A DNA stretch of 64,000 bases from Candidatus Bathyarchaeia archaeon (GCA_038727135.1 JAVYWL010000003.1:32001-96000), one strand, 5' to 3'; positions 13,110 through 64,000 are shown, counted from the first letter of the stretch. The notes: generated by a model not told the origin, from the sequence alone. Numbers and translations are program-made.

Positions 13110-14574
13110 AAAAGAGGGCAACATAGTCCAAATCCTAAGCTTCCCGAATGAAACCGCAGAAAAAGGCGATTACCTACTAATTGAAGATGCCGAATCCCAA
13201 AAAGCCCTAATAGTCCAAGTAATAGATATACAATTCGCAAACATACCAGGCGTCTTGGAAGAGCTTTTACGCAGTCTCCCAGACGGCGGCGAAATAATCC
13301 AAGGCGAAGATGTTGATCCGCTGGAAATAGCGCCCCACATAACCTACATACAAGATTCTAAGCTTTTAATCTGCAAGATTCGCGCAACGGTTGAGGGCGG
13401 CGAAAGCCTAAGCCCAAGCAGTTCCTGGCTTCCATCCCGGTCGCAGTCCACCATCAAAAGGCTTCCAATTTCAACTTTGCTAAAGCTGGCAAGGGTGGAC
13501 GGAAAACTCCCAATAGTTTTAGGCACCACAAAAGAGGCTTCGCTTCTAACCGTGGATGCTTCAGCCTTGGATGGACGCCTAAACATAATAACTGGCAAAA
13601 AGGAGACAGGCAAGTCGCACCTTTCAAAGTTATTAATAACAGCGCTGCTTCACTACGGCGCCACGGTCGTCGTCTTAGACCTGAACGGCGAGTATGCGGG
13701 TTTGGGCATGACTTCAGATGGGAAAAGAAACGCCTACTACCATAAGGTTCATGTTTTGACGCCTTCCCAAAACTTTAAGGTTGCCCTAAAACAGCTCCAT
13801 CTCAACGAGCTAATGAATATTCTTATTCACGCATTGCACCTGCCTGGAACATCAGCCCGCGAGTTTCGCCGGATATGGCAGTCTTTAAGGGAGCGGAACG
13901 CCCTAACCCTCAACGAGCTTGGGGAAGCCATCCGCAACTGGCACTGCAACCAGAACGTACGTGACGCGCTTTTTTCACGCTATTATGCTATGGTTAATTC
14001 CGGCTTTTTCACAGACAACATGGCAGAAGCCACACTTTTGGAGGAGTGCTTGTCAAAGGCAAAAGATGAAGGCGGAGCCATAATAATCAATCTTCGGGAC
14101 ACATCCACCATTGATAGGCAAATAGTTGTGGAGTATCTTCTCGGAAAACTTGTCGAGCTATTATCAAGTTGGAGGCTTAGGGCTGTTTTCCTATTCGCCG
14201 AGGAAGCCCACCTATATCTGCGGGAAACCTACTGGGACGACATTGTAACTCGGATGCGCCACTACGGCATATTCACAACCTTCATAACAAACCAGCCCGA
14301 CACAATACGGGAAAACATTTACCGCCAAGCAGACAACATATTCCTCTTCAACTTCACCAACGAACACGACCTAGAAACAGTCTCCCGCGCGGCACGAGTA
14401 GACGCGGAAACAGTAAAATCCATAGCCATGGACCTGCCGCCCCATCACTGCCTAGTGCTCGGCAAAATTGTAAAAGACTTCCCAATAGTCGTTAAAGTCC
14501 GAGCCTTAGACGTAAAAACTATGGGGGAAACCCGCCTATTCTTCACAGACGCAAAAATCAAGAACACGAATTAA
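13096..14574 (+). CDS. herA: HerA/FtsK-family ATPase (DUF87)
   Basis: Walker A GKKETGKS, DLNGEY, Walker B FAEEAH, RMRHYG, ITNQP; overlaps nurA. Confidence 0.8.
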   Translation: MRLYKKEGNIVQILSFPNETAEKGDYLLIEDAESQKALIVQVIDIQFANIPGVLEELLRSLPDGGEIIQGEDVDPLEIAPHITYIQDSKLLICKIRATVEGGESLSPSSSWLPSRSQSTIKRLPISTLLKLARVDGKLPIVLGTTKEASLLTVDASALDGRLNIITGKKETGKSHLSKLLITALLHYGATVVVLDLNGEYAGLGMTSDGKRNAYYHKVHVLTPSQNFKVALKQLHLNELMNILIHALHLPGTSAREFRRIWQSLRERNALTLNELGEAIRNWHCNQNVRDALFSRYYAMVNSGFFTDNMAEATLLEECLSKAKDEGGAIIINLRDTSTIDRQIVVEYLLGKLVELLSSWRLRAVFLFAEEAHLYLRETYWDDIVTRMRHYGIFTTFITNQPDTIRENIYRQADNIFLFNFTNEHDLETVSRAARVDAETVKSIAMDLPPHHCLVLGKIVKDFPIVVKVRALDVKTMGETRLFFTDAKIKNTN

Positions 14575-48470: not shown

Positions 48471-49613
48471 CTATAATTTCCAGTCTATTTTATGATCCTT
48501 AAAGAAGATTCCAGCAATTATGCCGGCAAAAAGGACAATAAAGGATAGGGGCTGATAAAAAAAGTAGTACGTCATGAATTCGGCGATACTGAATTGAAAT
48601 CCAAGCTTCTTTGAGGCTATATAAAAAATTGTTGAGAACATAATGAAGCCTAAAAAGAAGTTTGTCAAGGCTGTAAACAAAATTGTGGTCAATGAGGGAG
48701 GCAGCACAGGCACACTTGTAAGGTTCAATTGAGATGCTAAAGCTTTCGGGATAAAGTTGAACAGTTGGGCGTCTGGGAAAAAGGAGCAGACATAATTAAA
48801 AAGTATGAGGGCAACTGTTGGGAAAAGCATGAGGGAGCATGGAAAAGCTATGTATGGATACTTAGCAATAGATCTGACAACCTTTCCCCCATGGGCTTTA
48901 ATCCATATTCCCGTCCCGATACCCCACCTCTTCCTCTGAGCTAACCAACTTCTCCACCCTGAAGGAGCCTTCGTATAAACTTCAGCCTTGTTAGTAAACT
49001 TAAACCGCTTATTTCGATAGAAAGCCCTCGCCGCCAAGTCAAGGTCTTCTGAAACCACCTTGGCAAATCCTCCAACCTCTTCGAAGGTTTCCCTTTTAAT
49101 GGCGAAGGCTGTACCGCCGACAGCAAAACATTTCTGCACAAGTTTTGAATACAAGAAGCTTGAAAAGTTTGAGCCGACAAACTCGTAATTCACCATTCTA
49201 GATACGAAGGAATCCAGGATAATCTTCTTCTTTATGTCAAGAATGTCCGCATCCTCCATCTCTAAAGCTACAGTTTTTAGAAAATCCCTACATTCGCCGA
49301 GCTTAACATCCGCGTCCAGAAAAAGAAGAATTTCCCCGCTGGAAACCCTAACAGCCTCGTTCAAAGCCCCAACCTTACCTCTTCTGTGACCATTTAAAAT
49401 GAAATGCACCTCGCCACGAAAACGCTCAATAACCCTCTGCACATCAGCCGTAGGTTCATCTATAGTAACAAAAATCTCTTTATTTTGATAAGAGTCATTA
49501 ACCAAACCATCAAGAAGCTCCTCCAGCAAATCCGAGTGCCTATAAACCGGTATAAAAACACTGATTCTTCTATCCTTAGAACTGGACGGGTTGCTGCCTT
49601 GCAAATCGTCCAT
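48471..49613 (-). CDS. Glycosyltransferase family 2 (processive type)
   Basis: GKVGALN, DAD, SEDLD, QRKRW; C-terminal TM helices. Confidence 0.88.
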   Translation of the reverse strand: MDDLQGSNPSSSKDRRISVFIPVYRHSDLLEELLDGLVNDSYQNKEIFVTIDEPTADVQRVIERFRGEVHFILNGHRRGKVGALNEAVRVSSGEILLFLDADVKLGECRDFLKTVALEMEDADILDIKKKIILDSFVSRMVNYEFVGSNFSSFLYSKLVQKCFAVGGTAFAIKRETFEEVGGFAKVVSEDLDLAARAFYRNKRFKFTNKAEVYTKAPSGWRSWLAQRKRWGIGTGIWIKAHGGKVVRSIAKYPYIAFPCSLMLFPTVALILFNYVCSFFPDAQLFNFIPKALASQLNLTSVPVLPPSLTTILFTALTNFFLGFIMFSTIFYIASKKLGFQFSIAEFMTYYFFYQPLSFIVLFAGIIAGIFFKDHKIDWKL

Positions 49614-49853
49614 CCTGCAAAGTCTCCAAACCTATGTTAATAATTCAGCTTTTTTGTTTTACGCATAACTACGTCTTCCAGAATATTCCCAGAAAGAAAT
49701 ATCGCCAAACTAAGCCATCAACAACCTTTTTAGCTCTGCCGAAAACACCAAATTTATGGCTGATTTCAACGCAAATTGGCTAGTCCTCTAAATTCTGTTC
49801 AACCGCATTACAAGACACGAAACAAAACTCACCAGCGCCCTTGATCACAGTAG

Positions 49854-49880
49854 TGGTGGGGTAGCTGGGATTTGAACCCA
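49854..49880 (-). repeat. tRNA 3'-end duplicate, probable att site
   Basis: Reverse complement TGGGTTCAAATCCCAGCTACCCCACCA = T-arm, acceptor 3' strand and CCA, with no 5' half. Confidence 0.8.
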
Positions 49881-50078
49881 AAATAGCGACGGATGGAGAT
49901 ATCTCCCGCAAAATCCCCTCTTTTTCTATTCACAACATTTTTGAAAGTTTAATTTTTGTTTTTTATTTTATAGCACAAACAGAAACAGAGAATGGAATAA
50001 CGCATCCCTTAAGATTAAGTTTAGTTTTCTCGAGTTTAGATAATGTCAGTGATCTATGAGTTAGAATGTAATGACTGT

Positions 50079-50623
50079 TCACGTAGACATATAGATGCCT
50101 AACGTTACATTTGCATTTAACTGGACAGCGATAAAATCTGGTAATCGCACGAAGCTAAAGAATCCTATCCATAACTTTAGAGCTACAACTTGATATGTTT
50201 TTACTGTGAGTTATAAGTGTTATAGACAATGTAGCGGTCTTGCCACTAAAAGCCACCATTAGGTACACTCCATCCAATACCTATTGATGCGTTGCCGCCA
50301 ACATCTAGTGCAATTGTTATTCGTTCATAGCCTTCTACATTGAAGCAACGCCAAACTGAAGGTACTCCTCCGGGAAGGGCGACGTGAAATCTTTCGCCGT
50401 ACATATATGTTGTGTGAATTATTTTTACGTTTTTTGTTGAGTTTCCTCTTGTACTGAATGCCGAAACCGCCATAACTGTGTCTGTCATGCTTATTTCTCC
50501 ATTATCGTCGTAGTCAAGCCATGGATCATTCCTGACAATTTGCTGCATAGACACCGAAGAGAAAGCCAAAGTTAACAGGATGGAGCTGATCAAAATTGTA
50601 ACTGCAAGCTGTTTCCTATTCAT
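50079..50623 (-). pseudogene. Secreted dockerin-like protein, disrupted
   Basis: Signal peptide and DPWLDYDDNGEISMTD; TAG at 50246, then a plausible coding tail in another frame (TVKTYQVVALKLWIG...VTLGIYMST*). Confidence 0.55.
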
Positions 50624-50701
50624 AAGGCTTTATCACTTTTTCCTTCTAATCTATCATTTTCAATCATCTTTAAAAAAGAAAAAGGAAGTGTTGAAAAATG
50701 T

Positions 50702-52879
50702 TTAAGGTGAAGATGGAGGCGGCGGTGGTGGCTGCCATGGCGGGCTTGTTTTTCCGAAGTATTTGCAGACGAAGCCTAGGTCTTTGGCGTCTACTTTGCG
50801 GTCGTTGTTGACGTCTGCTCTGAAGCACCATCTTGGGTGCATGTTTGGGCATGGAGTGGAGCCGAAGGCTTTGCCTACTACACCAATATCTTTGGCATCT
50901 ACTTTGCCGTCATAGTTGGTGTCGCATGGTAAATAGTGGCATATCGGCTGTGGCGGCGTAATGTCGTATAATGCGTGGGGGACATAATACCATTTCCATA
51001 GGTTGTAGGCGTATATTCCGCGAAATACCGGATTATAATACCAATCTACTACCCAGTCTCGTTCCCAATGACGTCTCAGCGGTTGGCTTATTGGCACGCT
51101 TGGACAATCCTCGACAGCAAGCAACTGAATATTAAGGTATATTAGGGCCCTCTCCAATCCATCTTTTACTTTAACACCTTTCTCTATAAGTTCATCCATT
51201 GTTGGGTTACAATATCCCTGATAAGCAGCCATCCCCATTTTACTATGATAGAAATTGCTAGCAAAGTCGTGTGGATCTGCATAGCAAAATGTATATCCGA
51301 AAATAAAGAGCGGAGCCCATTTATTTTTTATCGCCCTGAAATATTCTGGAACAGGTAAGGCTACAATATTAACATGGAACTTTGGATTAAGCGCTTCAAT
51401 GTTTTCTTTAATGATCTCTGCAGCTATTCTTCTCGGCTCATTTCCCGTATTATACAGTATTGTTATTGTGAAGCCTGTCCGCCACACGCTTGCCGCTTGA
51501 AATTCCTCTATAGCCTTTGTTAGGTTGTAGGTGTAGCCTTGCACTGGAGCGTAGTAAGGCAAGCATGGGACGATAGCTGTTGGAGGTGCTATAGCCTCAC
51601 CTGCATAGGCTTGCTGTAGAAATCTTTGATAGTCGAATGCGTAGGCAAAGCCTTTCCTAATATGCGAGTAGTTAAAGAAGTCTCTTGGAATACCATCCTC
51701 GCTCCACCATCCTGGAGGATATATTATACCATAAGGGGTTTCTGGATTAACATCAAAAACATAAAATATGGCTTCCACGGCAAGTTCAGGCAGTGGATAC
51801 ATAAATCTCACTCCTGGTTTCTGATAAAATTCAGTTGCGCTAATACCTGGTATATCGATTGATCCGTTAAGGAACCCTTGAATAATTTCTTCCTTTGTCA
51901 AGCCCCATTTTACAGTGAAGGATGTAACCCAACCAGCCGGTTTGGTGCCAAAACATGCAGGGAAGTCCGCTGGCCATCCTCTCCAGTAATCATAGTTTAT
52001 AACAACCCTCCAGTATCTCTCCGGTTCGGATATCGTATCTAACATGAATGGCCCTGTCCCACACATAACTGGGTATGGTTCGTCTAGAGGAGATGTTGGC
52101 AAGTGATGGTAATTTATCCAATCAGTATAGTCGCCCCATTCGCCACCCCATTCCTTCCGGTTAAGCCATCCGATCACGTATTCGTTTATCCAAGCTTTGC
52201 TCAATATGCTTGAGTATGGCTGGCATAAAATCTGTAGGAATGGCGGATATATTGCTGGGAAAACAAAGTTGAACCAGACATGAGTAGCATTTGACTCAAC
52301 AGCGTGATCTATGGCCTTTCCAACGTTAATAATGCCCTCAGGTGTGCTGAGGTTAAATTGTGGACCATATTTTATGAGGTCTTCAGCTCCGGAAGCGTTT
52401 AGGAGAGGGGTGTAAATAGTCCACGCTAGCCCTTCATCGTAAACCATGACACGCTCAAAAGTGTACTCAACATCCTCAGGTTTAAGCGGATAGTAATGCA
52501 ATTCAATGTCACGGAAGTACACTCCAGTCCTTATTTCAAAGATGTACCTATAGAACCACGGCAACCCTTCAGGACTAACGCTTCCTGTAATGTTCTCAAC
52601 AACCCATTTTGTCGCAAGCTGAGGCATAATATGATCGGATGTAACCCTTTCGCCGTCATAGAACAACAAAGTCTCATAGATATTAAAAATTAGCTCAGCA
52701 CTTGCATCATCAAAACACCGCGCTGGATCAACCGTTTCAGGCCCATCAATGGTTCCCTTAATGAGATGGTAGACCTCATTAATTGGAGGAAATGCATACG
52801 CCGGAATAATGCTAAAAACGTTTAGGCTTACTGTTATGACAGTTATCCAAAAAATACCCACCAACAATTTTCTCCTCAT
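50702..52879 (-). CDS. Family 5 ABC substrate-binding protein with C-terminal dockerin domain
   Basis: DPA...NIYETL, CGTGPF, RKGFAYAFDY; duplicated DxNxDxKVDAKD; start at MRRKLL behind GGAGGAG. Confidence 0.88.
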   Translation of the reverse strand: MRRKLLVGIFWITVITVSLNVFSIIPAYAFPPINEVYHLIKGTIDGPETVDPARCFDDASAELIFNIYETLLFYDGERVTSDHIMPQLATKWVVENITGSVSPEGLPWFYRYIFEIRTGVYFRDIELHYYPLKPEDVEYTFERVMVYDEGLAWTIYTPLLNASGAEDLIKYGPQFNLSTPEGIINVGKAIDHAVESNATHVWFNFVFPAIYPPFLQILCQPYSSILSKAWINEYVIGWLNRKEWGGEWGDYTDWINYHHLPTSPLDEPYPVMCGTGPFMLDTISEPERYWRVVINYDYWRGWPADFPACFGTKPAGWVTSFTVKWGLTKEEIIQGFLNGSIDIPGISATEFYQKPGVRFMYPLPELAVEAIFYVFDVNPETPYGIIYPPGWWSEDGIPRDFFNYSHIRKGFAYAFDYQRFLQQAYAGEAIAPPTAIVPCLPYYAPVQGYTYNLTKAIEEFQAASVWRTGFTITILYNTGNEPRRIAAEIIKENIEALNPKFHVNIVALPVPEYFRAIKNKWAPLFIFGYTFCYADPHDFASNFYHSKMGMAAYQGYCNPTMDELIEKGVKVKDGLERALIYLNIQLLAVEDCPSVPISQPLRRHWERDWVVDWYYNPVFRGIYAYNLWKWYYVPHALYDITPPQPICHYLPCDTNYDGKVDAKDIGVVGKAFGSTPCPNMHPRWCFRADVNNDRKVDAKDLGFVCKYFGKTSPPWQPPPPPPSSP

Positions 52880-53323
52880 TTCTCCTCCCAATAATAATGA
52901 GAACTTAAAAGAGAATATAAATTTTTCATGAAAATTTTCGTGTAAAAGGAAGGCGAGAATAGTTACCTTTAAGTTGCCAACTAGAAGAGGGGAGGGCTGA
53001 AGTTTAAGCCTTATCTTAAGGGTTTTCATGATCTTCAGCACGGAAAATTTAGCAACAATTGAAAGTGGTGTTTGACTGCCCCCAGTTATCATCGTGGAAA
53101 TGAAAATAGCTGAATCAAAAATATTAAAGAATGGCTTAAAAAGGCAAATATAAGCGAAAGACCACCACTTCAATTTTCATGAAGCTTTAGCACTCGAGCC
53201 GATTATTTCAAACATAATTTGCATGTGGTTTATAGTGAAATATCTTGGCGATTATCGTGGAAAAACCCTCATCCACGTTTTGGCTCAATTATAGTAAAAC
53301 AGGTAAGTTGAAGTTATATGTAG

Positions 53324-53575
53324 TTATATTGAGTAAAATGATGAAATTCTGCGCCTTATTCTTCTACGGCTAAGCCTGTAACTCGCAAATATTTTTAAGA
53401 GCTGACTATCGGGGATTCTTAAATGTCCTGAAGGCAGCTTTATACACGCTATTAAGCCCTTCTTAATCCATCTGTATATGGTTTGGTCTGTCACGCCAAG
53501 CATATTCGCAACTTGCCTAACCTTATAGTAGGAAGGGTAACGTCTATCCATTCGCCATCCTTCCAAGTAATACAA
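53324..53575 (-). CDS. Excisionase-like HTH (MerR/HTH_17)
   Basis: VRQVANMLGVTDQTIYRWIKKG...LPSGHLRIP. Confidence 0.82.
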   Translation of the reverse strand: MYYLEGWRMDRRYPSYYKVRQVANMLGVTDQTIYRWIKKGLIACIKLPSGHLRIPDSQLLKIFASYRLSRRRIRRRISSFYSI

Positions 53576-53690
53576 GTTTAACCTTCATTTAAACTTTAAA
53601 CGCCTCCAAAACGCCTTTCAGCTTCGAATTTCAGCCTTTTCCGCGCGAAGTTTAATATTTTCATGCTTCTTTAACGTTAATTGGATAAAT

Positions 53691-53914
53691 ATGCCTCCAG
53701 ACGAATACATGAGCATTTGGATATGCTGCTTTTCGGTAAACGCTACAGCTGGCTCCATAGGTGGATGGATGAGCCATGGCGAAGCATGGGCAAAAAGCAT
53801 AGGCAATTGCGACACGACCCATACAGAACGCCTATACAAGCCTTTGTCCTCTCCGGGGGAGATTGGAAAGCGTATGCATCAGCATTATACCATATCATGT
53901 TGGATAAACTTTTA
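53691..53914 (+). pseudogene. His-rich small protein, 5' part, interrupted by the Cas1 element
   Basis: RRIHEHLD...LHRWMD...HRQLRHD...HIMLDK; frame continues after the element at 60527-60592; ATG 53691 is one base out of frame. Confidence 0.7.
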
Positions 53915-54032
53915 ATCTTTTTCTCTCTCTCTTTACCCTTATACCCCTACACACACCTATTAAATAAACAAAAAAATAAACAAACAATCCATCAATTAAT
54001 CAGTCAATCAGTTAATTAATCAAACAAAAACA
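53915..54032 (+). repeat. Left terminal inverted repeat and subterminal motifs
   Basis: ATCTTTTTCTCTCTCT (53915-53930); AATCAAACAAAAACA (54018-54032). Confidence 0.85.
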
Positions 54033-54151
54033 TAAAGCCTCAATACAAGTTGGAAAGCAGAGGACGGAATCAAAAAGCGTATCGGTTGCCTTAAAAGGGA
54101 ATTCCAATAGGACAGTTGACTGGAAAAAGCGTGTTTAAAGCTCTCTAAGTT

Positions 54152-55702
54152 TTAAAATGGGGTGTTCAGCTGATCCGGCGACACATGGAGATCGAGAGTT
54201 GTAAAAGCGATAATTGGTTGCCTTAAAGCTTGCGTTTCATAAGTGTTGTATTTTTCAATGAATGAAGCTGTTATGGCGTCATACTCTTGTGCAATTAGTA
54301 TGGGTTCAACAGCCATGAATTTTTCTTCTGCATTGTTTACTTCTTTATAGAGATACTCCATGAACTTAGTAAGCTCTTTTGGTGTACATTTTTTGTGGAC
54401 TTTGTATATTAGAACTCGCCCTATTGGGCTCTTTGAGCTATCATGCTGGAAATATTTTTGCAAGATAATTACATCTTTTTCTTGTAATGAAATCTCTACG
54501 GTGATTTTTGGTTTGCTTACTCGCATTATTGTGTAATAGAAATTAGATGGATCAGACCAGACATTGGAGATGTCGGTCGCTATTTTTGGGTAAATCTTAA
54601 AGGCAATATATGTAGGTTTTGATAATGTCTGGAGTTCAAAGTCTGCATCAGTTCCATTAGAAGTAGGTGTATATTTAAGGAGACGCACTTCTTCCCATGG
54701 AATAATTGTGTTTCTAAGGAAGCAATAATCTACTAGGTCTGTTGCGAATTTTTGAGCAATAAGACATGCAGAGAAAATATGATGTGCATTGTCTGATTTG
54801 GTAGTTCTAATTCTAAGGATCTCTTGATAATGTAATAGTTGGATTAGGTCTTTGATTTCAGCTTTATCTTTCTTCGCCTCGATAATAGTTATTGTCTTCT
54901 TTGATTTTTGATAGCCTATACATAGTAAGTCAACAGGCTTTCTTGCTGTTGATCCGACAAAAGTTTGTATCAAAAAGTCATACTCGTTATTTTTACAAGC
55001 CGGAATAAATTGAATAAAATTAGGATCTGCTCGCCCTAATTTATATGCAACTACTGCTTTGACCGGGAACTCGATTTCACCTACCCGTTTTATGTAATTT
55101 TTGAGCGGGAAACCGCTAAGCTTTAGAGGTTTGAACTCAATGGTTTGTTTTGTATGCTGTGTCGAAAATTCTCTATAAAGTAGTTTTATTATTTCCTGTG
55201 CATCTTCCCGTGTGATTGTTTTTACGGCATGGGCAGCCCCACGTTCTTCTCTTTCTAATGTTAAAATTGAGCGTATTATGCCCGCCTCTACGGCTGCATA
55301 AAATTGACTAACAGTTATATTAGCGTCGTTTTTACATAAGTCCGAATGCTCAGGGTGAGGTTCAAAACAAAATCTGTAGGGGTAAACAAAGTTCTCCGAT
55401 TTCCATATTCTTTGGTCGTTGTAAAACGGCTCTTCACGGACTCTATAAACACCATGGATCGTGCTCTCCTGCTTTTCCCTAAGTACATGGAAAAACACAA
55501 CATCTCCCTTTCGCATGCCGATAAGATCCTCTATTATTGACTGCACAGTGTTTGATCCTGCATCGAAATATTGAATTTCCCCTTTCCTTTCACTACCCTC
55601 TCTATTTCCGTATACTCCTATGTAACGGCTAATTTCCCAGTCTCCTTCAGAGATCTGACAAAGGAAAGCACGATCGCTCAAATAATTCCCTCCATTATTC
55701 AA
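54152..55702 (-). CDS. EVE/PUA-like domain fused to a PD-(D/E)xK nuclease; probable restriction endonuclease
   Basis: MRKGDVVFF...GVYRV...YPYRF (EVE-like); PVDLL...IIEAKK...QLLHY. Confidence 0.65.
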   Translation of the reverse strand: MNNGGNYLSDRAFLCQISEGDWEISRYIGVYGNREGSERKGEIQYFDAGSNTVQSIIEDLIGMRKGDVVFFHVLREKQESTIHGVYRVREEPFYNDQRIWKSENFVYPYRFCFEPHPEHSDLCKNDANITVSQFYAAVEAGIIRSILTLEREERGAAHAVKTITREDAQEIIKLLYREFSTQHTKQTIEFKPLKLSGFPLKNYIKRVGEIEFPVKAVVAYKLGRADPNFIQFIPACKNNEYDFLIQTFVGSTARKPVDLLCIGYQKSKKTITIIEAKKDKAEIKDLIQLLHYQEILRIRTTKSDNAHHIFSACLIAQKFATDLVDYCFLRNTIIPWEEVRLLKYTPTSNGTDADFELQTLSKPTYIAFKIYPKIATDISNVWSDPSNFYYTIMRVSKPKITVEISLQEKDVIILQKYFQHDSSKSPIGRVLIYKVHKKCTPKELTKFMEYLYKEVNNAEEKFMAVEPILIAQEYDAITASFIEKYNTYETQALRQPIIAFTTLDLHVSPDQLNTPF

Positions 55703-56513
55703 TTAGCTTCTTTTGCAGTATGTTAGCTTCTTCGATGAGTCTTCTTTTTGCAATTTCACAATAATTCCTGTCTATTTCTACTCCTATTCCTTTCCTTTTA
55801 AGAAGTGCACATGCTACTAAAGTGGTTCCACTACCGAGAAATGGATCAAGCACGGTATCCCCTACAAAGCTGAACAGTTTGATACATCTTTTTGGAAGTT
55901 CAAGAGGGAATGGTGAGGGATGATGCACTCTTTCAGGATTTTCACCTGAAAATGTCCATACGCCGTTAGTCCAATCAATAAACTCATCTTTTGTTATATC
56001 CGAGATTCCATTTTTCATTTTTTTCCACTGATGTTTGTAGAGCACTACTACGACCTCAACCGGTGCTATAACATATGGTGCTGAAGCGCTAAGCCATGAT
56101 CCCCATGCAGTTCTTCTAGATATGTTCTGTTCATTCCATATTATCGTTGAGAAATACTTCCATCCTAATTTTTTGGCAATGCTAACAATATCTAAGTAAA
56201 CACTTTGAAAACCTTCATCCCTTCTCCCTTTGCTTTTGTCGAGTGGTATGTTTAAACACATTCTGCCATCGGGTTTTATTAACTCTAAAGCTTTCTGAAG
56301 CCATTTTTCAGTGAATTCAAGGTACTTTTCATATGGAATATCATCTCTAAAAGATCCATAATGGATATCAACGTTATAAGGAGGAGACGTAACGATCAAA
56401 TCTATGGTATTTTTATGTATAAAATCCGTTGTCAGAAAATCGTCGTTTAAAATTATTATTTCATCATTTTTTCTGAAGAATACTTTTTCGTGCTGTACCC
56501 GAAGCTCTTCCAA
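55695..56513 (-). CDS. Site-specific DNA methyltransferase, N4-C/N6-A, beta class
   Basis: TSPPYN (motif IV) before DPFLGSGTT (motif I); HPSPFP. Confidence 0.93.
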   Translation of the reverse strand: MEELRVQHEKVFFRKNDEIIILNDDFLTTDFIHKNTIDLIVTSPPYNVDIHYGSFRDDIPYEKYLEFTEKWLQKALELIKPDGRMCLNIPLDKSKGRRDEGFQSVYLDIVSIAKKLGWKYFSTIIWNEQNISRRTAWGSWLSASAPYVIAPVEVVVVLYKHQWKKMKNGISDITKDEFIDWTNGVWTFSGENPERVHHPSPFPLELPKRCIKLFSFVGDTVLDPFLGSGTTLVACALLKRKGIGVEIDRNYCEIAKRRLIEEANILQKKLIE

Positions 56514-56679
56514 TTATTTGTCTCCACACCACACTTTTTCAGTGAATCTATGTTTTTATCGTTAATAATCTTTCTGATACTCATCTAGGTCGCGCTTCCT
56601 TTTCCAGTCATACTTTGCAAGTCCAATGTTTAACTTCAATGAAACATGGTTTTGTTGCAAATATTAGAAGCATGGTCTT

Positions 56680-56895
56680 TTAGCCTTCATAACTTATCTC
56701 CTCATAGAACACATCAAACAACTCACAAGTAACCTTCATTATTTGCACAGCAATCCACATCTCAGCTTCAACGGACAAATTGCAGTGTTCAGCAATCTCC
56801 CTAGCAAGCTGTCGGCTCATGGCTTCAATATCATTCAGCGAAGGCTTCTCTGAACCTTTCATATGCAGTATCCACCACCCGCCTTTCCTCTTCAC
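56680..56895 (-). CDS. Small hypothetical protein
   Basis: Overlapped member of a minus-strand gene run. Confidence 0.45.
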   Translation of the reverse strand: MKRKGGWWILHMKGSEKPSLNDIEAMSRQLAREIAEHCNLSVEAEMWIAVQIMKVTCELFDVFYEEISYEG

Positions 56896-57118
56896 TTAAA
56901 CTTTCATAGTCACGTTTAACTAGCCAACGCACATAATCAGCCTCTCTTAAGCCTCTATACCTAGCCATGACGTGAAAGAGAATACGATCTTCTAAACGAG
57001 TCCACCACATATTCCACCTAATGCCACGCCTCGTAACCTTCCACTTTCCAACACGTTTCACAGGCTTTTCCTTCGCTTTAGCTAAAAGCTGAAAAATGGT
57101 TTTCCAGTCAAGCGACAC
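56831..57118 (-). CDS. Hypothetical protein, RHH-like C-terminus
   Basis: MARYRGLREADYVRWLV resembles a ribbon-helix-helix. Confidence 0.5.
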   Translation of the reverse strand: MSLDWKTIFQLLAKAKEKPVKRVGKWKVTRRGIRWNMWWTRLEDRILFHVMARYRGLREADYVRWLVKRDYESLSEEERRVVDTAYERFREAFAE

Positions 57119-57679
57119 CTACTTCACCATCCTTCCAAGGGCGACCCTCTTCTTAACGAAACGCTCATGTTCAACCTTCAACCTAACATAGGCTTCATGC
57201 CACTCCCGCTCCCAATATTCAACCCTACGCCTAGAAGCCTCAACACGCTTCAAAATCCACGCCTCAACCTCACGCCATTCCTCTTCAGACCATTCCTCTT
57301 CAAAAGCCTGAGCACGCACACGCTTGTAATAACGCTCCCATTCTTCTAATCTATCCTTGTTATAGGCTCTACGTTGAGCACAATAATACACACGCCTATA
57401 AAGCTGGTCGATAAGCTGTTTCTCCCTAATATACTCCTCTAGGGTGACAGGCACTTCTGGTATGCCTAGCCTTTCAGCCTCAACCTTCAAGGCTTGAATT
57501 TGTTTTTGAGAGCCAACCCACTTCCTTCCAGCCCAGTGGCTGAAAGCAGTCAATAACTGCTGGAAAGATGTAATCTTTGAAACATCAACTACCTGCTCAA
57601 ACCTCTGAAACGCCTCAGGAAACTTGTCCACCCTTAACCACCACTCCACGCTTTTCCAAGCCAGTGTCATACAAAACAA
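57119..57679 (-). CDS. Hypothetical coiled-coil protein
   Basis: E/R/W-rich helical ORF; the start may be the internal GTG (VDKFPEAF). Confidence 0.55.
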   Translation of the reverse strand: MFCMTLAWKSVEWWLRVDKFPEAFQRFEQVVDVSKITSFQQLLTAFSHWAGRKWVGSQKQIQALKVEAERLGIPEVPVTLEEYIREKQLIDQLYRRVYYCAQRRAYNKDRLEEWERYYKRVRAQAFEEEWSEEEWREVEAWILKRVEASRRRVEYWEREWHEAYVRLKVEHERFVKKRVALGRMVK

Positions 57680-58136
57680 GAACCACTTTGTCTGGGAATG
57701 TGGTTGGCTCGTAGCCCTCCAAGTAGCCTACCACTTGTTGAGGTGGTCTGCCAACTTTATTGCTTGTTCTTAAAGTGGCTTGTCCACGCCTAACAGTCCA
57801 CCAGAAAAAGTTCCAGTCTAAATGTTCAGTGTCAAGTAGAATTTTTAGGTATTCTTTGAATGGGCGTCTGCTGAAGCACCAAGCTCTATAACTGCCTTCG
57901 CAGTCGCTTGTTATGTAGATGTCGCCTAGCCTATACTTGTATTGCACGTCAGCAAGCGTTTGTTTAGCTTGTTCCAATGTGCAGTTTTCCAAATCCCATA
58001 AAATTATGTGTTCATCTTCACCAACTTTGCTTGTCACACCTTCTAGGGTTTGAGTTTTAGAAATCATGAAGAAGACTGTGACGGTGCCAAGCTTGAAAAG
58101 AAAATTCAGTCTAGTCGGCAGTTTCATTAAGGTCAC
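57615..58136 (-). CDS. Small AEP primase-like protein (divergent)
   Basis: HIILWDLE (hhhDhD/E-like), SYRAW at the position of motif II, D...ATLR; fold call is inference. Confidence 0.4.
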   Translation of the reverse strand: MTLMKLPTRLNFLFKLGTVTVFFMISKTQTLEGVTSKVGEDEHIILWDLENCTLEQAKQTLADVQYKYRLGDIYITSDCEGSYRAWCFSRRPFKEYLKILLDTEHLDWNFFWWTVRRGQATLRTSNKVGRPPQQVVGYLEGYEPTTFPDKVVLVLYDTGLEKRGVVVKGGQVS

Positions 58137-58438
58137 CTATTTTTACGCTTTAACAACTCCTTCGCAGTCCTAATGTAGTCGTCCACAGTCATGGGTCTAA
58201 ACAGAATACTTAATTGAAATCTAATGTCGTCTTCAGATATTCCATTTTCTAGCATTTCAGCAACTTTTCTGATGTTTGCTTCTCGCCTCACTGAGCCGTG
58301 TCCACGGTCAAACTGTGTTAAGAATGGCGGGTTGCTTTTTTCTGTGGTTGACGTAGCCTTATCCTTTTCTGCACATTCATCAGAGCAATAAGTCAACCTA
58401 TCGGGGATTTTCTTGCCACAAACTTTGCAGGTCTTCAT
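58133..58438 (-). CDS. Zn-finger (CxxC...YCSxxC) protein with HTH-like tail
   Basis: CKVCGKKI...YCSDEC. Confidence 0.65.
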   Translation of the reverse strand: MKTCKVCGKKIPDRLTYCSDECAEKDKATSTTEKSNPPFLTQFDRGHGSVRREANIRKVAEMLENGISEDDIRFQLSILFRPMTVDDYIRTAKELLKRKNR

Positions 58439-58632
58439 TCGCTATATCCCCTCTTCTGCAAAACCCCTAGAGCCTTCTTAGTTTCTTTGTCAAAGTAGTT
58501 TAGGGATGCAAGTTCTTTTTTGATGGCTCTCCTCACGAAGTCGCTTACGTCTTCACCTCGTGCCTTGCAGACTTGTTGAAGTAACCGTTTTTCATTTTCA
58601 TTTAGTCTTACCCCAATGATTGCATTTAACAT
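58435..58632 (-). CDS. CopG/RHH transcriptional regulator
   Basis: IIGVRL...RGEDVSDFVRRAI. Confidence 0.8.
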   Translation of the reverse strand: MLNAIIGVRLNENEKRLLQQVCKARGEDVSDFVRRAIKKELASLNYFDKETKKALGVLQKRGYSE

Positions 58633-58674
58633 AGTTTATCACCGCACAACACTTTTATTTTGGAGTAGGTACCT

Positions 58675-59094
58675 ATGTTTCGGTCGGGAAATTTGGGGGT
58701 CAAGCGGGAAAAAGCCTATAAGTACCAGCTTGTCTTTAAGGGGGAACCCTTAGATTTGGAAGAGGTTAGAGCTAAACTTTCAAGTTTTGGTTATCATGTG
58801 GCAATTCATGAAAAACCCGCTGGGCAACATCATTTAGAGGCTTTTGTGGGGGACTGGTTTCTCCAATTTTATGGAACTGGCACGGTAAATGTTTTTGTCA
58901 AAGACAAGGACGACGTTTTTAAAGTCTCAAAATTTTTGGGTCAACTGGGCTGGTTCATGTTGGAAAAATTTAATCCTAGGCTTGCACTTTTGTGGGAGGT
59001 TTTTGGAAAATCGGAGGAAGGGAAAAGTGTTGAATGTTATCGTGAAGTCTTCAATGTCGTTAAGGCTTTTGAGCTTTTTTGGTTAAAATCATAA
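58675..59094 (+). CDS. Hypothetical protein
   Basis: 139-aa ORF divergent from the RHH gene; no recognised motif. Confidence 0.5.
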   Translation: MFRSGNLGVKREKAYKYQLVFKGEPLDLEEVRAKLSSFGYHVAIHEKPAGQHHLEAFVGDWFLQFYGTGTVNVFVKDKDDVFKVSKFLGQLGWFMLEKFNPRLALLWEVFGKSEEGKSVECYREVFNVVKAFELFWLKS

Positions 59095-59176
59095 TTGATG
59101 TTTTTAGGGGTGTTTATGGTGAAAAATATCACATACTACGTTGATTTTATATATTTTGAGTATGTTAGTTTAAAGT

Positions 59177-59344
59177 ATGGGTGAAGAAGAAAATATTGCT
59201 TATATAAGTGTGCGGGGTTATCGGTGTCTGCGTTGCGGTCACACATGGGTTCCTAGGAAAAATTCTAAGAGCCCACCTAAAGTGTGTCCAAAATGCAAAA
59301 GTCCTTATTGGGATAAGCCTCGTAGGCGTAAGGTTAAAGAGTGA
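59177..59344 (+). CDS. Small Zn-ribbon protein (55 aa)
   Basis: MGEEENIAYISVRGYRCLRCGHTWVPRKNSKSPPKVCPKCKSPYWDKPRRRKVKE; missed by the ORF track. Confidence 0.75.
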   Translation: MGEEENIAYISVRGYRCLRCGHTWVPRKNSKSPPKVCPKCKSPYWDKPRRRKVKE

Positions 59345-60377
59345 CTATTCTGGGTTGCCATTGTTTTGTTTCGTTTCTTATGTGTTTTGCTAGGAGTAGG
59401 GCTTCTTCTGTGATTAGTGTGTCTAGGGTCTGCTGTTTTCCGTGTTTTATTCTTGGGATTTTGACTTTTTGGTTGAAGAGGTTGTTAAGTTCTTCTGCCA
59501 GCTTGTCTGCTTCGTATTCTAGTAGGTGTATGCGTTTTCCCATTCTTAAATGCACTATGAAGTCTGTGACTGCGACAAAATCGTTTTTGTGGAGTTTTGT
59601 TCTGCGTTCTATTATGAAGTTGTCTATTATGTGGCGGTATAATTCCATGAAGTCGCAGGCTAGGCTTGGTTTGCCGTGTTGCATGGCGTGTAAGAAGCCT
59701 AGGTATGGTTCAAGTTTTGCTTTTAATAGTGCCTTATATACTCTGCATTTTAGCACATAATAGCCAAAGTTGAAAACATTGTTAAGTCCATCATAGGCTT
59801 TAAAGCCCACTCGCTTTTCTGGTCTTATTTTTTCTGGGAAAAGGGTGAATATTTGTTTGAAGTAGTGTTGTGAGGCTTTTCCTTCTATTTGGTTTAGCTT
59901 ATACCTTATGTCTTGGGGTTTTTCTGCTTTTAGGCTGTCGATTTTGCTTTTTAAAGCGGTTAGGTTAAGCTGTTCTAGTCCGTATTTCCTTAAGACCATG
60001 TTTTGGGCTTCTATTTTGGTTTTTACTATTGTTTTTGCTATTTCTACGCCTTTCTGGTTTTTTGTGGCTTCGTATTGCATTATTCTGGTTTTTACGTGGC
60101 TGTCGTCTTCTAGGCTTTTTAAAATGGCTACTACTCTGTTTCGTCTGGTCATTATGTAAGTGTCAATGTTCCAAAGTGCCAAATCTATTAAGGCGTCAAC
60201 ACTTACATAACTGCCTGATTTTAGTATGCATTCGCCTATTTCCTTTTCAAAGTGTGGGTAACGCTCCACCCTCCCGTCTTTGAGGCGGAGTTCAAAACAT
60301 CCTTCCGCCCTGCCCAGATAACTGCCATACTTGTCTAGTTGCAGTTTTAGTGTTTTGACTGGTCGCATTTCAGCCAC
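59334..60377 (-). CDS. cas1: Solo Cas1 (casposase-like integrase)
   Basis: IEGKASQHYF, NNVFNFGY, EPYLGFLH, SLACDFMELYR: catalytic E/H/D-E residues appear intact. Confidence 0.9.
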   Translation of the reverse strand: MAEMRPVKTLKLQLDKYGSYLGRAEGCFELRLKDGRVERYPHFEKEIGECILKSGSYVSVDALIDLALWNIDTYIMTRRNRVVAILKSLEDDSHVKTRIMQYEATKNQKGVEIAKTIVKTKIEAQNMVLRKYGLEQLNLTALKSKIDSLKAEKPQDIRYKLNQIEGKASQHYFKQIFTLFPEKIRPEKRVGFKAYDGLNNVFNFGYYVLKCRVYKALLKAKLEPYLGFLHAMQHGKPSLACDFMELYRHIIDNFIIERRTKLHKNDFVAVTDFIVHLRMGKRIHLLEYEADKLAEELNNLFNQKVKIPRIKHGKQQTLDTLITEEALLLAKHIRNETKQWQPRIVTL

Positions 60378-60415
60378 CTATTTACCTAGAAGTATATTAC
60401 TTTTGGGTATATATT

Positions 60416-60526
60416 TGTTTTTGTTTGATTGTTTGTTTGATTGTTTGAGGGTTTGTTTGATTGATTGATGCATCTCTTTGTATTGGGTGGTGGGTGTGGG
60501 TGGATTGGGTAGAGAGAGAAAAAGAT
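60416..60526 (-). repeat. Right terminal inverted repeat and subterminal motifs
   Basis: AGAGAGAGAAAAAGAT (60511-60526); TGTTTTTGTTTGATT (60416-60430); repeated GTTTGATT units. Confidence 0.85.
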
Positions 60527-60592
60527 AAACTTTTAATAAATGCTGCCTCGGTCGAATTATTATACTTCATAATTAAGACATTGAAATCCTAA
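60527..60592 (+). pseudogene. 3' remnant of the interrupted His-rich gene
   Basis: KLLINAASVELLYFIIKTLKS* in frame across the duplicated target site. Confidence 0.65.
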
Positions 60593-60595
60593 TTT

Positions 60596-61159
60596 TCATC
60601 GCCCAACTTGTTCTTGAGTAAAGTACTTCTTAAGCTCTTCTTCAAAATTTTTTAATTCTTCCATCAACTTTCTTGAGACTAATTCATAAAGTTTCGGATC
60701 CAAAAACTCTGAAGGTTTTTCCATGAATTCTTTGAGAGTATTAAAAAAGGTTTGTCGAAACTGTATATTCATTGGATCTTTGCCAGCTGAGTATGCGGAC
60801 ACTTCAAGACACATGTTAATGGTTTTTGAAAAATCTAAAGTGCTTCCTCTACACAAGTACAAGTAGAAGAATAACGACATTGCCAACTTTATATGTTCCC
60901 TAATCTTTTCCTCGATAGGCTGGAAGACTTTTAAGGCGAAAAGTCCCTTATTCAAACTTTCTTTTTCTTTGAGATTTATAAGCACTCCGCTCTGTATCAT
61001 AACCTTTATTTTGCGATAAAGCTGAGATGTCGATACTTTTGCATTCTTTCTTATTTCATCCCAACTTTGGGGCTGCTTCTTTATTAATTCCCATAAAATG
61101 CGCGCGTCTGAGCTTAATTCTTCCCCCACTTGTCCTCTCATTTTTGCAAAAACCTCCAC
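60596..61159 (-). CDS. Winged-helix protein
   Basis: ILWELIKK...VSTSQLYRKIKVMIQSG. Confidence 0.65.
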   Translation of the reverse strand: MEVFAKMRGQVGEELSSDARILWELIKKQPQSWDEIRKNAKVSTSQLYRKIKVMIQSGVLINLKEKESLNKGLFALKVFQPIEEKIREHIKLAMSLFFYLYLCRGSTLDFSKTINMCLEVSAYSAGKDPMNIQFRQTFFNTLKEFMEKPSEFLDPKLYELVSRKLMEELKNFEEELKKYFTQEQVGR

Positions 61160-61231
61160 GTAGATCTCAGCTTACATTTGCAGTTTTGAAAGGAAAACTA
61201 GAAAAGCCTTTCTCATCAAACGCGCATCTCG

Positions 61232-61792
61232 GTGAATAAAATGTCGAAAATTGATGCTGAGCTAATAAAGCCTTTGCCAGAGCCAAGTGAGGGCGACTAC
61301 GTCATTGAAAAGGTTGAGCGCGTCGATCAGACGCCGCTTCGAGGACTACAAGGCTGGAGGGTTACGCTTCGCAATGCTAAGGATGGTAGCTTATGCGCTA
61401 CGATGCTATGGAAAAGAGAGCAAGTCGGGCCGAATTCTAAGCTTGGCTCTTTTCTTTTGGCTCTCGGTAAAGACGCTGATACATGGACAGGTAAAATTAT
61501 TAGGCTAGCATCTTGGAAGCCTAGAGAAAGGAAGGTTGTAATGGTTGCTGACAAAGTAAAAGACATAGTAACTGCAGCTGGAGCCACAGCTAAAACTGAT
61601 CTGGTTATGGCTTGCAAACAACGGCTAATCGACATCCTTGAACGCGGCAAAATCTACAGCGTTGCCGAAATTAAAGGGTTAAGCCCAGACTATAAGGAGG
61701 ACATTATTGCTTCAGCCCTTGAATTGCTGGTCAGCGAAGGAAAAGTTTTCAAAATTCCTACGACACCTACGCGATATTATTATGAGGGCTAA
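61232..61792 (+). CDS. Hypothetical protein (beta-rich, possibly OB-like, plus C-terminal wHTH)
   Basis: SKLGSFLLALG...WTGK; ALELLVSEGKVFK. Confidence 0.6.
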   Translation: MNKMSKIDAELIKPLPEPSEGDYVIEKVERVDQTPLRGLQGWRVTLRNAKDGSLCATMLWKREQVGPNSKLGSFLLALGKDADTWTGKIIRLASWKPRERKVVMVADKVKDIVTAAGATAKTDLVMACKQRLIDILERGKIYSVAEIKGLSPDYKEDIIASALELLVSEGKVFKIPTTPTRYYYEG

Positions 61793-61794
61793 GG

Positions 61795-62892
61795 ATGCGA
61801 TTTCAGAAGGCTTATTTGATTAGGCTTAAGCTTCTGGAAGGGTTTCTCTCACACAAGCTTTCTTATCTCAAACAGTTATGTATCTCTAGTGATATATGCA
61901 CTTCTGAGAAGACATCGCATGCCTTGAGAAAGTTTCCGCCCGGGCTTCTTCCCACAGCCATAAGTGTTGAACTTGCCCTTTACAGCGGCTACATTGAGCC
62001 ATACGACCCCTTAAGCATGCTTATAATTGCGCCTGTTGGAAGCGGGAAAACGGAGCTGCTTAAGGCTTACGCAGAAAACAGGGGCGTAGCGCTTTACAAT
62101 GATTTCACAAGCTATGGGCTTACGGGATTACTTGGACAAATCCAAGCCGGGCTTATACGCCACGTCATGGTTGCTGATTTGGTCCGACTTACAGCAAGAG
62201 GAAACCCCGTTTGGCATCAAATACTTTTAACGCTTAACGCTTTGATGGAGGAAGGTGTCCAAAACATAGACACCTTTCATATACGCTTTCACTCCCCAAC
62301 ACCAGTTAAGGCAGGCGTTGTAGCTGCACTAACAACTGATGAATGGAAAGCCCGCCGAAAACAATGGATGCGCTTAGGCTTCCTAAGCCGAGCCGTACCG
62401 ATAAGCTACCACATCGCGCCTGAAGATATAATCCGCGGAGAACAAGCCCTATACAAGGCTGAACCCGCGTTCAAACCCGTAAAGGTGAACCTTCCAGAAA
62501 AGCCTCTAAGCGTAAACGTTCCTGAAAGGCATAAAGAAGCCTTGATGCGTCTGGGAAGGGTTATAGCGGCTGTAAACCGTGACGAGACGCGTTTCAGATC
62601 GCACCGACATGTCATAGCAATGGCTAAGGCTTCAGCCCTACGCGAAAACAGAACCGAAGTAAACGAGGAAGACGTTAAATTGCTTAAAGCCCTAAGCGTC
62701 TTATGGCTAAGCCCATACAGCGGAGACGAGCCAAGCTTCCGCATAATGCTCACCCTACCAGCAACATCAAACCAAATACTAAGCGAGCTTTCAAACCTCT
62801 ACAGTCCAGCCACAATTTACAGGCGGCTGAACTACCTTGAAAACTTAAAGGCCGTAAGGCGGGATGGCGACAAATGGGTTCCAAACCTCTAG
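61795..62892 (+). CDS. AAA+ ATPase with C-terminal wHTH (putative replication protein of the element)
   Basis: APVGSGKT, LNALMEEG, GFLSR, SPATIYRRLNYLE; start uncertain. Confidence 0.7.
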   Translation: MRFQKAYLIRLKLLEGFLSHKLSYLKQLCISSDICTSEKTSHALRKFPPGLLPTAISVELALYSGYIEPYDPLSMLIIAPVGSGKTELLKAYAENRGVALYNDFTSYGLTGLLGQIQAGLIRHVMVADLVRLTARGNPVWHQILLTLNALMEEGVQNIDTFHIRFHSPTPVKAGVVAALTTDEWKARRKQWMRLGFLSRAVPISYHIAPEDIIRGEQALYKAEPAFKPVKVNLPEKPLSVNVPERHKEALMRLGRVIAAVNRDETRFRSHRHVIAMAKASALRENRTEVNEEDVKLLKALSVLWLSPYSGDEPSFRIMLTLPATSNQILSELSNLYSPATIYRRLNYLENLKAVRRDGDKWVPNL

Positions 62893-63279: not shown

Positions 63280-63762
63280 TTGCCATTACAATGGGACTAT
63301 CGCTCAATCCTCGCTGATTCGGGGGCTGCCATAGTGAAAATCGTTAAAGCCTTAAAAGAGCCTAATTCCTCAAACAAAGACGTTTTCAGGCTTCTCTTCA
63401 GAAACCACAAGACCATTCACGCTTCAAGGCTCCTTTTTAGTTGGATGCTGGATAATGGCGGTTACGCAACACCATCCCAGCTAAGCCAATTCGCATGGAA
63501 ACTACAAAAAGGTAAGGTTGAGGAGGGCTACCGTTATCGGCGTTCAAGCCTTTACAGAACAGTTTTGAGGCGCCTCTTAGACTTCGGCTTCATAAACCAG
63601 CAGCAAATATATGATAAGGAAACGGGCAAAATTGTCCAAGCCTACGTTCTAATAAAGCAGCCCATACCAAAACGCGCTCCTCTCAGCGGAGCCAGCTTCT
63701 GGAAGCTGGCATGGCACATATGCAAAGCGTGGAATGAACAACTCGAAAAGGCGAAAGGCTAA
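63280..63762 (+). CDS. Winged-helix-like hypothetical protein
   Basis: LYRTVLRRLLDFGFI...QAYVL. Confidence 0.6.
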   Translation: MPLQWDYRSILADSGAAIVKIVKALKEPNSSNKDVFRLLFRNHKTIHASRLLFSWMLDNGGYATPSQLSQFAWKLQKGKVEEGYRYRRSSLYRTVLRRLLDFGFINQQQIYDKETGKIVQAYVLIKQPIPKRAPLSGASFWKLAWHICKAWNEQLEKAKG

Positions 63763-63769
63763 GGCGGAC

Positions 63770-64000
63770 ATGACAACGCCAATCCATTGTCCACAGTGCG
63801 GTTCAACGCTTTTTTGGAAGGATGGAATGCGTTATCTATTTGATGGCTCAGCTGTTCAGCGTTATGTTTGCAGAAATTGTGGACACCGCTTCTCTGAGCC
63901 GAGCAATAAAATTGAAAAGCAAAACCGCAAGCCCATACTTTTGGAGAGGGCTCCCTTGACCCTTAAAGCCCAAACAGAAAAGCGGGCTGCGGGAGCCACA
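63770..64000 (+). CDS. Probable tyrosine integrase, N-terminal Zn ribbon only (truncated by the window)
   Basis: CPQCGS...WKDG...QRYVCRNCGHRFS...KRAAGAT, open to the window end; catalytic domain not visible. Confidence 0.6.
   Translation, partial: MTTPIHCPQCGSTLFWKDGMRYLFDGSAVQRYVCRNCGHRFSEPSNKIEKQNRKPILLERAPLTLKAQTEKRAAGAT

Follow-up and report, generated by a model that had tools for sequence, protein, structure and literature searches.

In a 64,000-nucleotide stretch of DNA from a Candidatus Bathyarchaeia archaeon (GCA_038727135.1, JAVYWL010000003.1:32001-96000; hereafter the window), we identified a transposon encoding a Cas1 homologue that interrupts a small histidine-rich gene. The transposon occupies positions 53917-60523 (6,607 bp), carries imperfect terminal inverted repeats (TIRs) of ~120 nt per end and resembles a casposon without PolB. 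The interrupted gene belongs in turn to an element integrated in a tRNA-Pro(GGG) gene, one mobile element being nested in another in an uncultured hot-spring archaeon. We regard it as very probable that a Cas1 transposon inserted here, with a 14-bp target-site duplication (TSD), into a DUF6915-like gene of the tRNA-Pro element. A transposon splitting a gene that its flanks restore is an ordinary phenomenon. The restored gene and the natural empty sites described below are the cleanest proof of the exact ends of the transposon and of its recent mobility, and the element provides an entry point to a family of Cas1 transposons that lack the PolB expected of casposons.

An exact-match count places the 14-mer GATAAACTTTTAAT at two positions of the window and nowhere else in it, 53903-53916 and 60524-60537 (both unstranded); two copies were found in none of 100 dinucleotide-preserving shuffles of the window. 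The inverted termini of the transposon abut these copies directly, with CTTTTTCTCTCTCT reading inwards from 53917 and its complement ending at 60523. The terminal arms comprise 19 nt and are 95% complementary; inward of them a weaker similarity extends over ~120 nt, made of CAAAC/CAATC sub-repeats. When the genome was scanned with the terminal motif, the sole matches were the two ends of this element.

The two TSD copies share a reading frame and belong to a single gene. The frame opened by the TTG at 53681 reads ...ALYHIMLDKLLI (...HIMLDKLLI) through the left copy and, when continued through the right copy instead, gives DKLLINAASVELLYFIIKTLKS before a stop at 60590-60592. Joining the flanks by their coordinates gives one 96-codon frame with a single stop. 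This agrees with the original prediction, made from the DNA sequence of the window, that the flanks restore a gene through one copy of the duplicated site: the frame is continuous, stops at 60592 and is followed 3 nt further on by the end of a convergent open reading frame (ORF). The latter is a winged-helix gene of the host element with weak TrmB/HTH matches (60596-61159, reverse strand). The 5′ part of the split gene (53681-53916, forward strand) corresponds to codons 1-76 of intact homologues, the left TSD copy encoding D72-K-L-L-I. The orphaned 3′ part (60538-60592, forward strand) begins with the final base of the Ile codon, after which come 17 codons and the TAA stop. As the DNA now stands, the 5′ frame enters the transposon and gains 34 element-encoded codons before a stop at 54017-54019, giving an open frame of 112 codons from TTG 53681 to 54019.

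Intact homologues of 90-102 aa cross the junction in the same order. Using the 80-residue 5′ part as a query, we scored seven candidates of 71-102 aa, 70-89% identical to the 5′ part, all of which (7/7) extend past ...LDK. The closest of them, P0002 (93 aa, 88% identical), ends in LSINPASVELLYFISKTLKS, and the C-terminus of P0003 is LSINPAAVELLYFIIKH. Counted without gaps from the residue after D-K, identity to the tail encoded by the right flank amounts to 17/20 for P0002 and 13/17 for P0003, followed by 7/20, 4/20, 4/17, 4/20 and 3/20 for P0004 to P0008. Identity to the tail supplied by the transposon, in the same order from P0002 to P0008, is 5/20, 4/17, 2/29, 2/20, 3/17, 3/26 and 2/23. When the P0002 tail was slid over all six frames of the window, it gave a single match of 17/20, the next best being 8/20. 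The homologues accordingly do not end at HIMLD, and the C-termini of P0002 and P0003 match the peptide encoded at 60527-60592, as anticipated for a gene that once ran across the insertion point.

Natural empty sites were found in two sources. The first is a contig of a Bathyarchaeia metagenome-assembled genome in the public record (L038), whose copy of the host element sits at the same tRNA and differs in its middle section. Positions 1-4369 of this contig correspond to window 49550-53916 at 98.3% identity, the alignment stopping exactly at the end of the left TSD copy, and window 60523-60590 is matched at 83.8% by positions 4355-4421. In L038 the flanks thus share 15 nt, and a single copy of the motif, GATAAACTTTCAAT, lies there inside the intact 90-codon gene of P0003. 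The second source is a comparison of the region with four hot-spring metagenome runs, in which contigs were placed at a threshold of 85% and parts of the element without contig cover were taken as uninformative. In a contig from run X1, position 53902 is followed directly by 60524, the 6,621 nt in between being absent, and 14 letters fit both sides. The boundaries of the element, which the restored frame had been taken to support, are independently confirmed by the uninterrupted site of L038 and by this contig.

Related Cas1 elements show the same arrangement of ends. The genome contains two further elements and one fragment (C1:49090-49254) with Cas1; the element on contig C5, a contig that ends inside an inverted repeat, encodes a Cas1 68% identical to that of the window (tblastn), and the Cas1 at C1:802106-803122 is 53% identical. 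Across the class, the Cas1 of this family is present in 47 of 401 genomes at E ≤1e-30. We examined 20 regions around full-length Cas1 matches, of which 13 had a long-range inverted repeat. Elements with both ends numbered 14, namely 12 of these regions together with L034 (9015-13442) and the window element; the elements considered further include L036, on contig C5, and lie otherwise in the series L069-L086. Their sizes range from 3.9 to 10 kb. Since Cas1 is rarely the terminal gene in the relatives, their ends cannot be read from the DNA beside it. A perfect direct repeat of 13-15 bp was found directly outside the TIRs in all 14 elements, for L086 once a CA-repeat forming part of the inverted repeat had been trimmed off. 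Examples are GCTTAAATTTTAACC, GGTTAAATTTTAACC, GATTAAAATTTAATC, ATTAAATTTTAAT, GGTTAAATTTTAAG and GTTAAAATTTTTAT, and example coordinates are 8645-8659 in L072, 8930-8944 in L071 and 9001-9014 in L034.

The duplicated segments are 81.7% A+T, compared with 55.5% for the genome, and share an AT-rich, near-palindromic core resembling TTAAA[A/T]TTTTAA. The motif TAAANTTT[TA]A occurs in 7 of the 14 TSDs versus 0.09 times per kb in the genome. None of the other 13 restored sites contains an ORF comparable to the split gene: four are without any ORF of at least 60 codons, in two an ORF merely ends within the TSD, and the rest are crossed by frames of unrelated size, L083 lying inside a frame of 649 codons. 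Because the motif is common to TSDs in unrelated flanks and no comparable ORF exists at these 13 sites, target choice appears to follow the motif. The shared core implies that this choice would be directed by sequence within the duplicated segment itself.

Several observations weigh against this interpretation of the site and of the family. The right flank matches L038 at only 83.8% over 68 bp, and similarity is then absent until L038 position 8852, so that the two host elements are mosaic just beyond the insertion site. The empty-site contig from X1 stems from a relative that departs from the window at 22 letters and by 4 gaps in 377 nt (depth 5.85), and the junction of the window itself is poorly present in the public runs, its best share being ≤0.12. 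In P0004 to P0008, the more distant homologues, no more than 3-7 of 17-20 positions agree with the right-flank tail, and the tail evidence accordingly rests on P0002 and P0003. As for the family, 7 of the 20 regions (L079, L080, L082, L084, L085, L087 and L088) had no inverted repeat and were left out of the analysis, as was L077, where the repeat touches the contig end, and 3 of the 14 TSDs (L073, L081 and L083) do not fit the AT-rich motif.

By analogy with the casposases studied so far, integration would have been driven by Cas1 through a staggered 14-bp cut at GATAAACTTTTAAT. The target would have been codons 72-76 (D-K-L-L-I) of a ~93-codon DUF6915-like gene within the 15-kb element in tRNA-Pro(GGG), chosen because it resembles the AT-rich near-palindromic motif of the family and not for the identity of the gene. 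Repair of the staggered cut would have doubled the 14 bp and left the gene in two pieces: a 5′ part (53681/53691-53916), whose frame continues into the inverted repeat, and a stranded 3′ part of 17 codons (60538-60592); the split gene was presumably inactivated in the process. Pieces of the transposon core are found in the metagenome runs at 99-100% identity, for example 322 nt without a difference in X2 and X4. Together with the identical TSD copies and the intact Cas1, these near-identical pieces point to a recent insertion.

The gene content of the transposon is compatible with Cas1-driven movement. Its Cas1 homologue, a putative casposase of 347 aa (59334-60377, reverse strand), is intact and matches PF01867 (6.3e-47) and TIGR00287 (1.7e-46). 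A family scan of the 12 ORFs of the element returned no recombinase family besides Cas1 and no PolB, and PolB was likewise absent from 36 large ORFs of 14 related elements, in which the largest ORFs other than Cas1 reach ≤366 aa. PF03175 has no match in the genome, and the two PF00136 genes on contig C1 lie outside all located Cas1 elements. No Cas2 or other Cas family was found among the ORFs of the element, and its sole repeats are the sub-repeats of the inverted repeats, no dedicated CRISPR finder having been run. The window element thus combines Cas1, TIRs and a TSD of ~14-15 bp with the lack of a CRISPR-cas locus, all as in casposons, but has no PolB, for which reason we class it as casposon-like and not as a canonical casposon.

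Three core genes (57119-58438, reverse strand) recur among 15 elements. They encode an unclassified 186-aa protein, a 173-aa protein with weak likeness to primase-polymerases and a 101-aa zinc-finger protein. Cas1 is the sole gene found in 15 of 15 elements, the 186-aa family occurring in 10, the zinc-finger family in 8 and the 173-aa family in 7; a family related to the last is found in 6 further elements. In the 173-aa protein, D48 is invariant within a D-x-[DE] motif. Its predicted model (pLDDT 76.7) gave AsfvPrimPol in all of the top 11 Foldseek matches, at weak E-values of 4e-3 to 5e-2. VIA returned nine entries of the archaeo-eukaryotic primase (AEP) superfamily that align over more than 100 residues, at Z 4.7-5.6, on a par with ferredoxin-like folds. 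These weak but consistent likenesses may point to a primase-polymerase-like protein. The cargo module (54152-56513, reverse strand) consists of a 516-aa ORF that overlaps a type II N6/N4 DNA methyltransferase gene (PF01555, 7.3e-47; PADLOC MTase_II, 2.2e-90) by 8 nt. The 516-aa product has weak EVE and NucS_C/PD-(D/E)xK-like matches, and the two genes probably form a restriction-modification pair. Exactly this module is skipped in some variants of the element in the metagenomes (joints 54160/54167 to 56679).

Could Cas1 be mere cargo, the element having been moved by another recombinase of which the 14-bp repeats are the att or target sites? The missing PolB, which sets the element apart from canonical casposons, would suit such a scenario. 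No transposase or integrase family other than Cas1 was found among the ORFs of the element, however, Cas1 alone is common to all 15 related elements, and TIRs with a duplication of 13-15 bp constitute the casposase signature reported in the excerpts of PMC9939771 and PMC4779613, all of which renders the scenario extremely improbable. It is also very unlikely, if slightly less so, that the transposon recognises this particular gene as a dedicated target, as family 1 casposons do with the 3′ end of aEF-2, and not a short motif. L038 does contain a second, different Cas1-element remnant ~130 bp downstream of the same gene, which means that this corner of the host element has been hit twice, but this remnant has a ATAAAATTTTTAA site of its own and lies outside the gene. 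Moreover, an ORF comparable to the split one is found at none of the 13 other restored sites (the frames there were not compared with DUF6915), and the motif is shared across unrelated flanks. We therefore retain a motif-guided insertion by Cas1.

The fate of the split gene leaves more room for alternatives, beginning with its start codon. The ATG at 53691 lies one base out of the split-gene frame owing to an apparent 1-nt deletion in codon 2: L038 reads ATG CCC TCT AGG AGG where the window reads ATG CC- TCC AGA CGA, one C of the CCC run being missing, and homologues start with MPSRR. The deletion brings into frame a TTG located 10 nt upstream of this ATG. That the ATG is one base out of frame had been predicted correctly, whereas its explanation as decay after insertion is less certain, since an assembly error in the C run could produce the same picture. 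This reading, in which the shift is a consensus error in a short C run and the real gene still starts at the ATG, is a serious candidate that falls somewhat short of an even chance. The difference is one of CC versus CCC, the extra C is carried by 3 of 3 X1 contigs covering codon 2, and the codons after the shift differ from L038 only synonymously (TCT/TCC, AGG/AGA, AGG/CGA), as for a frame recently under selection. On the other side, the X1 contigs stem from relatives and not from the source sample, a gene cut by a transposon is free to decay, and no other sign of poor consensus is found nearby, the left flank being 98.3% identical to L038 over 4.4 kb.

A related question is whether the gene is dead at all. 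The insertion lies directly after D72, the last invariant residue, so a 5′ part with all invariant residues (H7 to D72) and a tail of 34 residues encoded by the inverted repeat may give a working protein from TTG 53681. The open frame of 112 codons and the high variability of C-terminal tails across the wider family fit this idea, as do thaumarchaeal integrated elements that are described, in the available portion of PMC6563490, as replacing the 3′ end of their target gene with element sequence. Such a product would recall mobile elements that supply a target gene with a new 3′ end and a stop codon of their own. Starting at the TTG would nevertheless cost the protein its Met-Pro (M1 is invariant and P2 is present in at least 90% of relatives) and the fixed spacing from the N-terminus to H7, in a domain that nearly always begins at residue 1 in the library profile search. 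The lost tail includes E82, L84 and Y85, which are invariant in the close subfamily, and the structural model places a confident helix at residues 78-92. We consider a functional truncated protein unlikely, and the inactivation of the gene by the Cas1 transposon the more plausible outcome.

We then compared the window element with described casposons, for which PolB is given as a shared core gene in the consulted parts of PMC6563490 and PMC4779613. Casposon targets comprise intergenic regions, tRNA genes and a protein-coding gene (PMC4779613, in excerpt); for family 1, the targets are aEF-2 in Nitrosopumilus and phosphoribosylamine-glycine ligase in Ca. Nitrosotalea devanaterra (PMC6563490 and PMC4779613, in excerpt). 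With family 1, as far as these excerpts describe it, the window element has in common the Cas1 integrase, the TIRs, a TSD of 14-15 bp, insertion near the 3′ end of an ORF and empty sites in relatives. It differs in lacking PolB and in its length of only 6.6 kb, in targeting a gene of another integrated element instead of a housekeeping gene, in cutting off the last 17 codons of that gene instead of preserving them, and in the AT-rich near-palindromic motif inside its TSD. Family 2 casposons (AciBoo-C1, Methanosarcina mazei; PMC4779613, in excerpt) likewise show a strong target preference, tandem arrays and re-use of the regenerated target, as seen here in L069 and L071, but their insertions lie at tRNA 3′ ends or fixed intergenic sites, and PolB is among their genes. 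Between the Cas1 of the window and the M. mazei casposase (6opm) similarity is only distant (E 7e-14). The target preference of casposases is also treated in PMC9939771.

A search of the literature library gave no paper on casposons without PolB. We put at about even the chances that these elements form a widespread family, undescribed in that literature, of small (3.9-10 kb) PolB-less Cas1 transposons of Bathyarchaeia with a miniature primase-polymerase-like gene and an AT-rich, near-palindromic target motif of 13-15 bp (GATTAAAATTTAATC-like), the His-rich gene having been hit only via its codons 72-76 and Cas1 transposition not being tied to a PolB replicase. If true, a PolB-less family whose target is set by a motif would broaden the definition of casposons and provide an easily testable target rule.

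Some members of the family show possible traces of repeated insertion. A CCCAAACCC-type end lies directly after the right TSD in L069 (9132-9160) and in L071 (13996-14030), and in L069 this end is followed by a second Cas1, 51% identical, at 13217-14242. These arrangements look like tandem arrays that re-use the regenerated target. The remnant in L038 (4525-4925) consists of a CCCCAAACCC-type end and a 103-aa C-terminal fragment of Cas1, 91% identical to the C1 element of G000.

The element that hosts the transposon spans 15.1 kb between two att repeats. The left one, attL (49854-49880, unstranded), matches the last 27 bp of tRNA-Pro(GGG), at its 3′ end, without a difference (blastn 27/27, E 1.4e-8 in the genome). 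The right one, attR (window-equivalent 64931-64957, C3:96931-96957), lies just beyond the window end, inside the tRNA-Pro(GGG) gene itself (window-equivalent 64931-65009, C3:96931-97009; aragorn). The same 27-bp repeat is present in L038. Adjoining the tRNA gene, a 388-aa tyrosine integrase starts at 63734-64000 and runs on to window-equivalent 64900 on the forward strand (NCBIfam NF040815, XerA-like, 7.1e-25). With an integrase and direct att repeats, one of which is the 3′ end of the tRNA, the host classifies as a tRNA-integrated tyrosine-recombinase element, which bears out the view that the target was a protein-coding gene of another mobile element. Its further genes encode a solute-binding/dockerin protein, an HTH_17 excisionase-like DNA-binding protein, the His-rich protein, the winged-helix protein, an AAA-like ATPase and several proteins of unknown kind. 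The HTH_17 gene (53324-53575, reverse strand; Pfam PF12728, 2.8e-12) adjoins the split gene and has the same position next to it in L038.

Archaeal tRNA-integrating cryptic elements with XerA-like or SSV-type integrases, as portrayed in the excerpt of PMC6563490, share with this host the tRNA 3′-end site, the att repeats, the terminal integrase and a majority of unknown genes; the host in the window differs in carrying the solute-binding/dockerin protein and in having been invaded itself by a Cas1 transposon. Comparison of the two copies of the tRNA-Pro element showed arms that are 98% and 95-97% identical and an unrelated middle (window 60590-62882 versus L038 4421-8852), the left breakpoint of this middle falling within ~70 bp of the transposon target. 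Within the host element, a small ORF for a dockerin-like/secreted product (window 50246-50623) has a 76%-identical DNA counterpart at L036 5354-5962, on contig C5 with the second Cas1 element. From this stretch, the two kinds of mobile element appear to share a gene.

Finally, the His-rich gene flags a sizeable protein family with an invariant His/Asp set and a confident predicted fold for which no structural relative was found. The P0002 family has a sporadic distribution: at E ≤0.001, 26 of the 401 class genomes contain it, G000 included. In an alignment of 26 relatives, residues M1, H7, H23, D27, H37, R38, H42, H68 and D72 never vary; P2, G16 and G34 are present in at least 90% of the sequences, and an H42-D43 pair is frequent. 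The cut in the D72-K-L-L-I segment encoded by the TSD thus falls just past the last invariant residue. The H/D pattern from which a small metal-binding hydrolase had been proposed is real and conserved, with the exception of D11 in the first HxxxD, which is not invariant. The residues fit such a hydrolase, but no tool result shows one, and a metal-binding or hydrolytic role of the product is at most suggested by them.

Searches of Pfam, NCBIfam, PHROGs and PADLOC gave no family for P0002 or for the 5′ part in the window, and 5 of the 26 relatives matched the unannotated phrog_8143. The DUF6915 model (PF21866, cut-off 27 bits) matched neither the window 5′ part (E ≤0.1) nor P0002 (E ≤1) and had no match in G000. 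Relatives reached from P0002 score 18-31 bits on it, and only L023 passes, with 31.4. Aligning the close subfamily with the subgroup that contains PF21866 matches, hhalign returned a probability of 99.0% (E 8.7e-18), on which basis the split gene is a distant DUF6915 relative. Of 30 language-model neighbours, 29 were DUF6915 clusters, and two of the three top clusters listed are 50-67% viral. The product shares with Pfam DUF6915 an N-terminal all-alpha domain of ~75-100 aa and differs in that the Pfam model misses both the window gene and P0002. The literature searched contained no paper naming DUF6915, a family to which no function or structure is attached. A profile search of 1.84 billion representatives collected 1,522 representative clusters at E ≤0.001 (604 at ≤1e-10), the domain almost always starting from residue 1, and fusions among the members join it to an SF1 helicase (L031) and a zinc ribbon (L023).

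The AlphaFold model of the 93-aa protein (pLDDT 93.9) consists of seven helices. A fold search with this model gave no PDB or BFVD match at E ≤0.001, and a sequence search of the PDB with the family profile gave none at E ≤10. The best VIA match, at Z 6.1, was to the N-terminal domain of Nab2, an unrelated helical domain; for a helical bundle we do not trust this likeness. With regard to an HD-type metal-dependent phosphohydrolase (H...HD...D ligands), which was considered for this protein, the entries 6dka and 2pjq, HD-domain structures, appeared in the fold searches only at E 8-10. On the strength of the invariant residues and the helicase fusion, we tentatively suggest a small metal-binding His/Asp domain that might act on nucleotides or nucleic acids.

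The neighbourhoods of distant homologues (72 ORFs) were heterogeneous and gave no hint on function. At one locus (L018 218-1986), a distant DUF6915-like gene adjoins hypA and a ParA/Mrp-type P-loop NTPase gene, a single-locus hint that some DUF6915-like members may handle metals rather than nucleic acids. A related genome carries a decayed copy of the His-rich gene (G322:C1:452475-452751; L005/L030), which is 76% identical over residues 1-45 and contains TGA and TAG stops.

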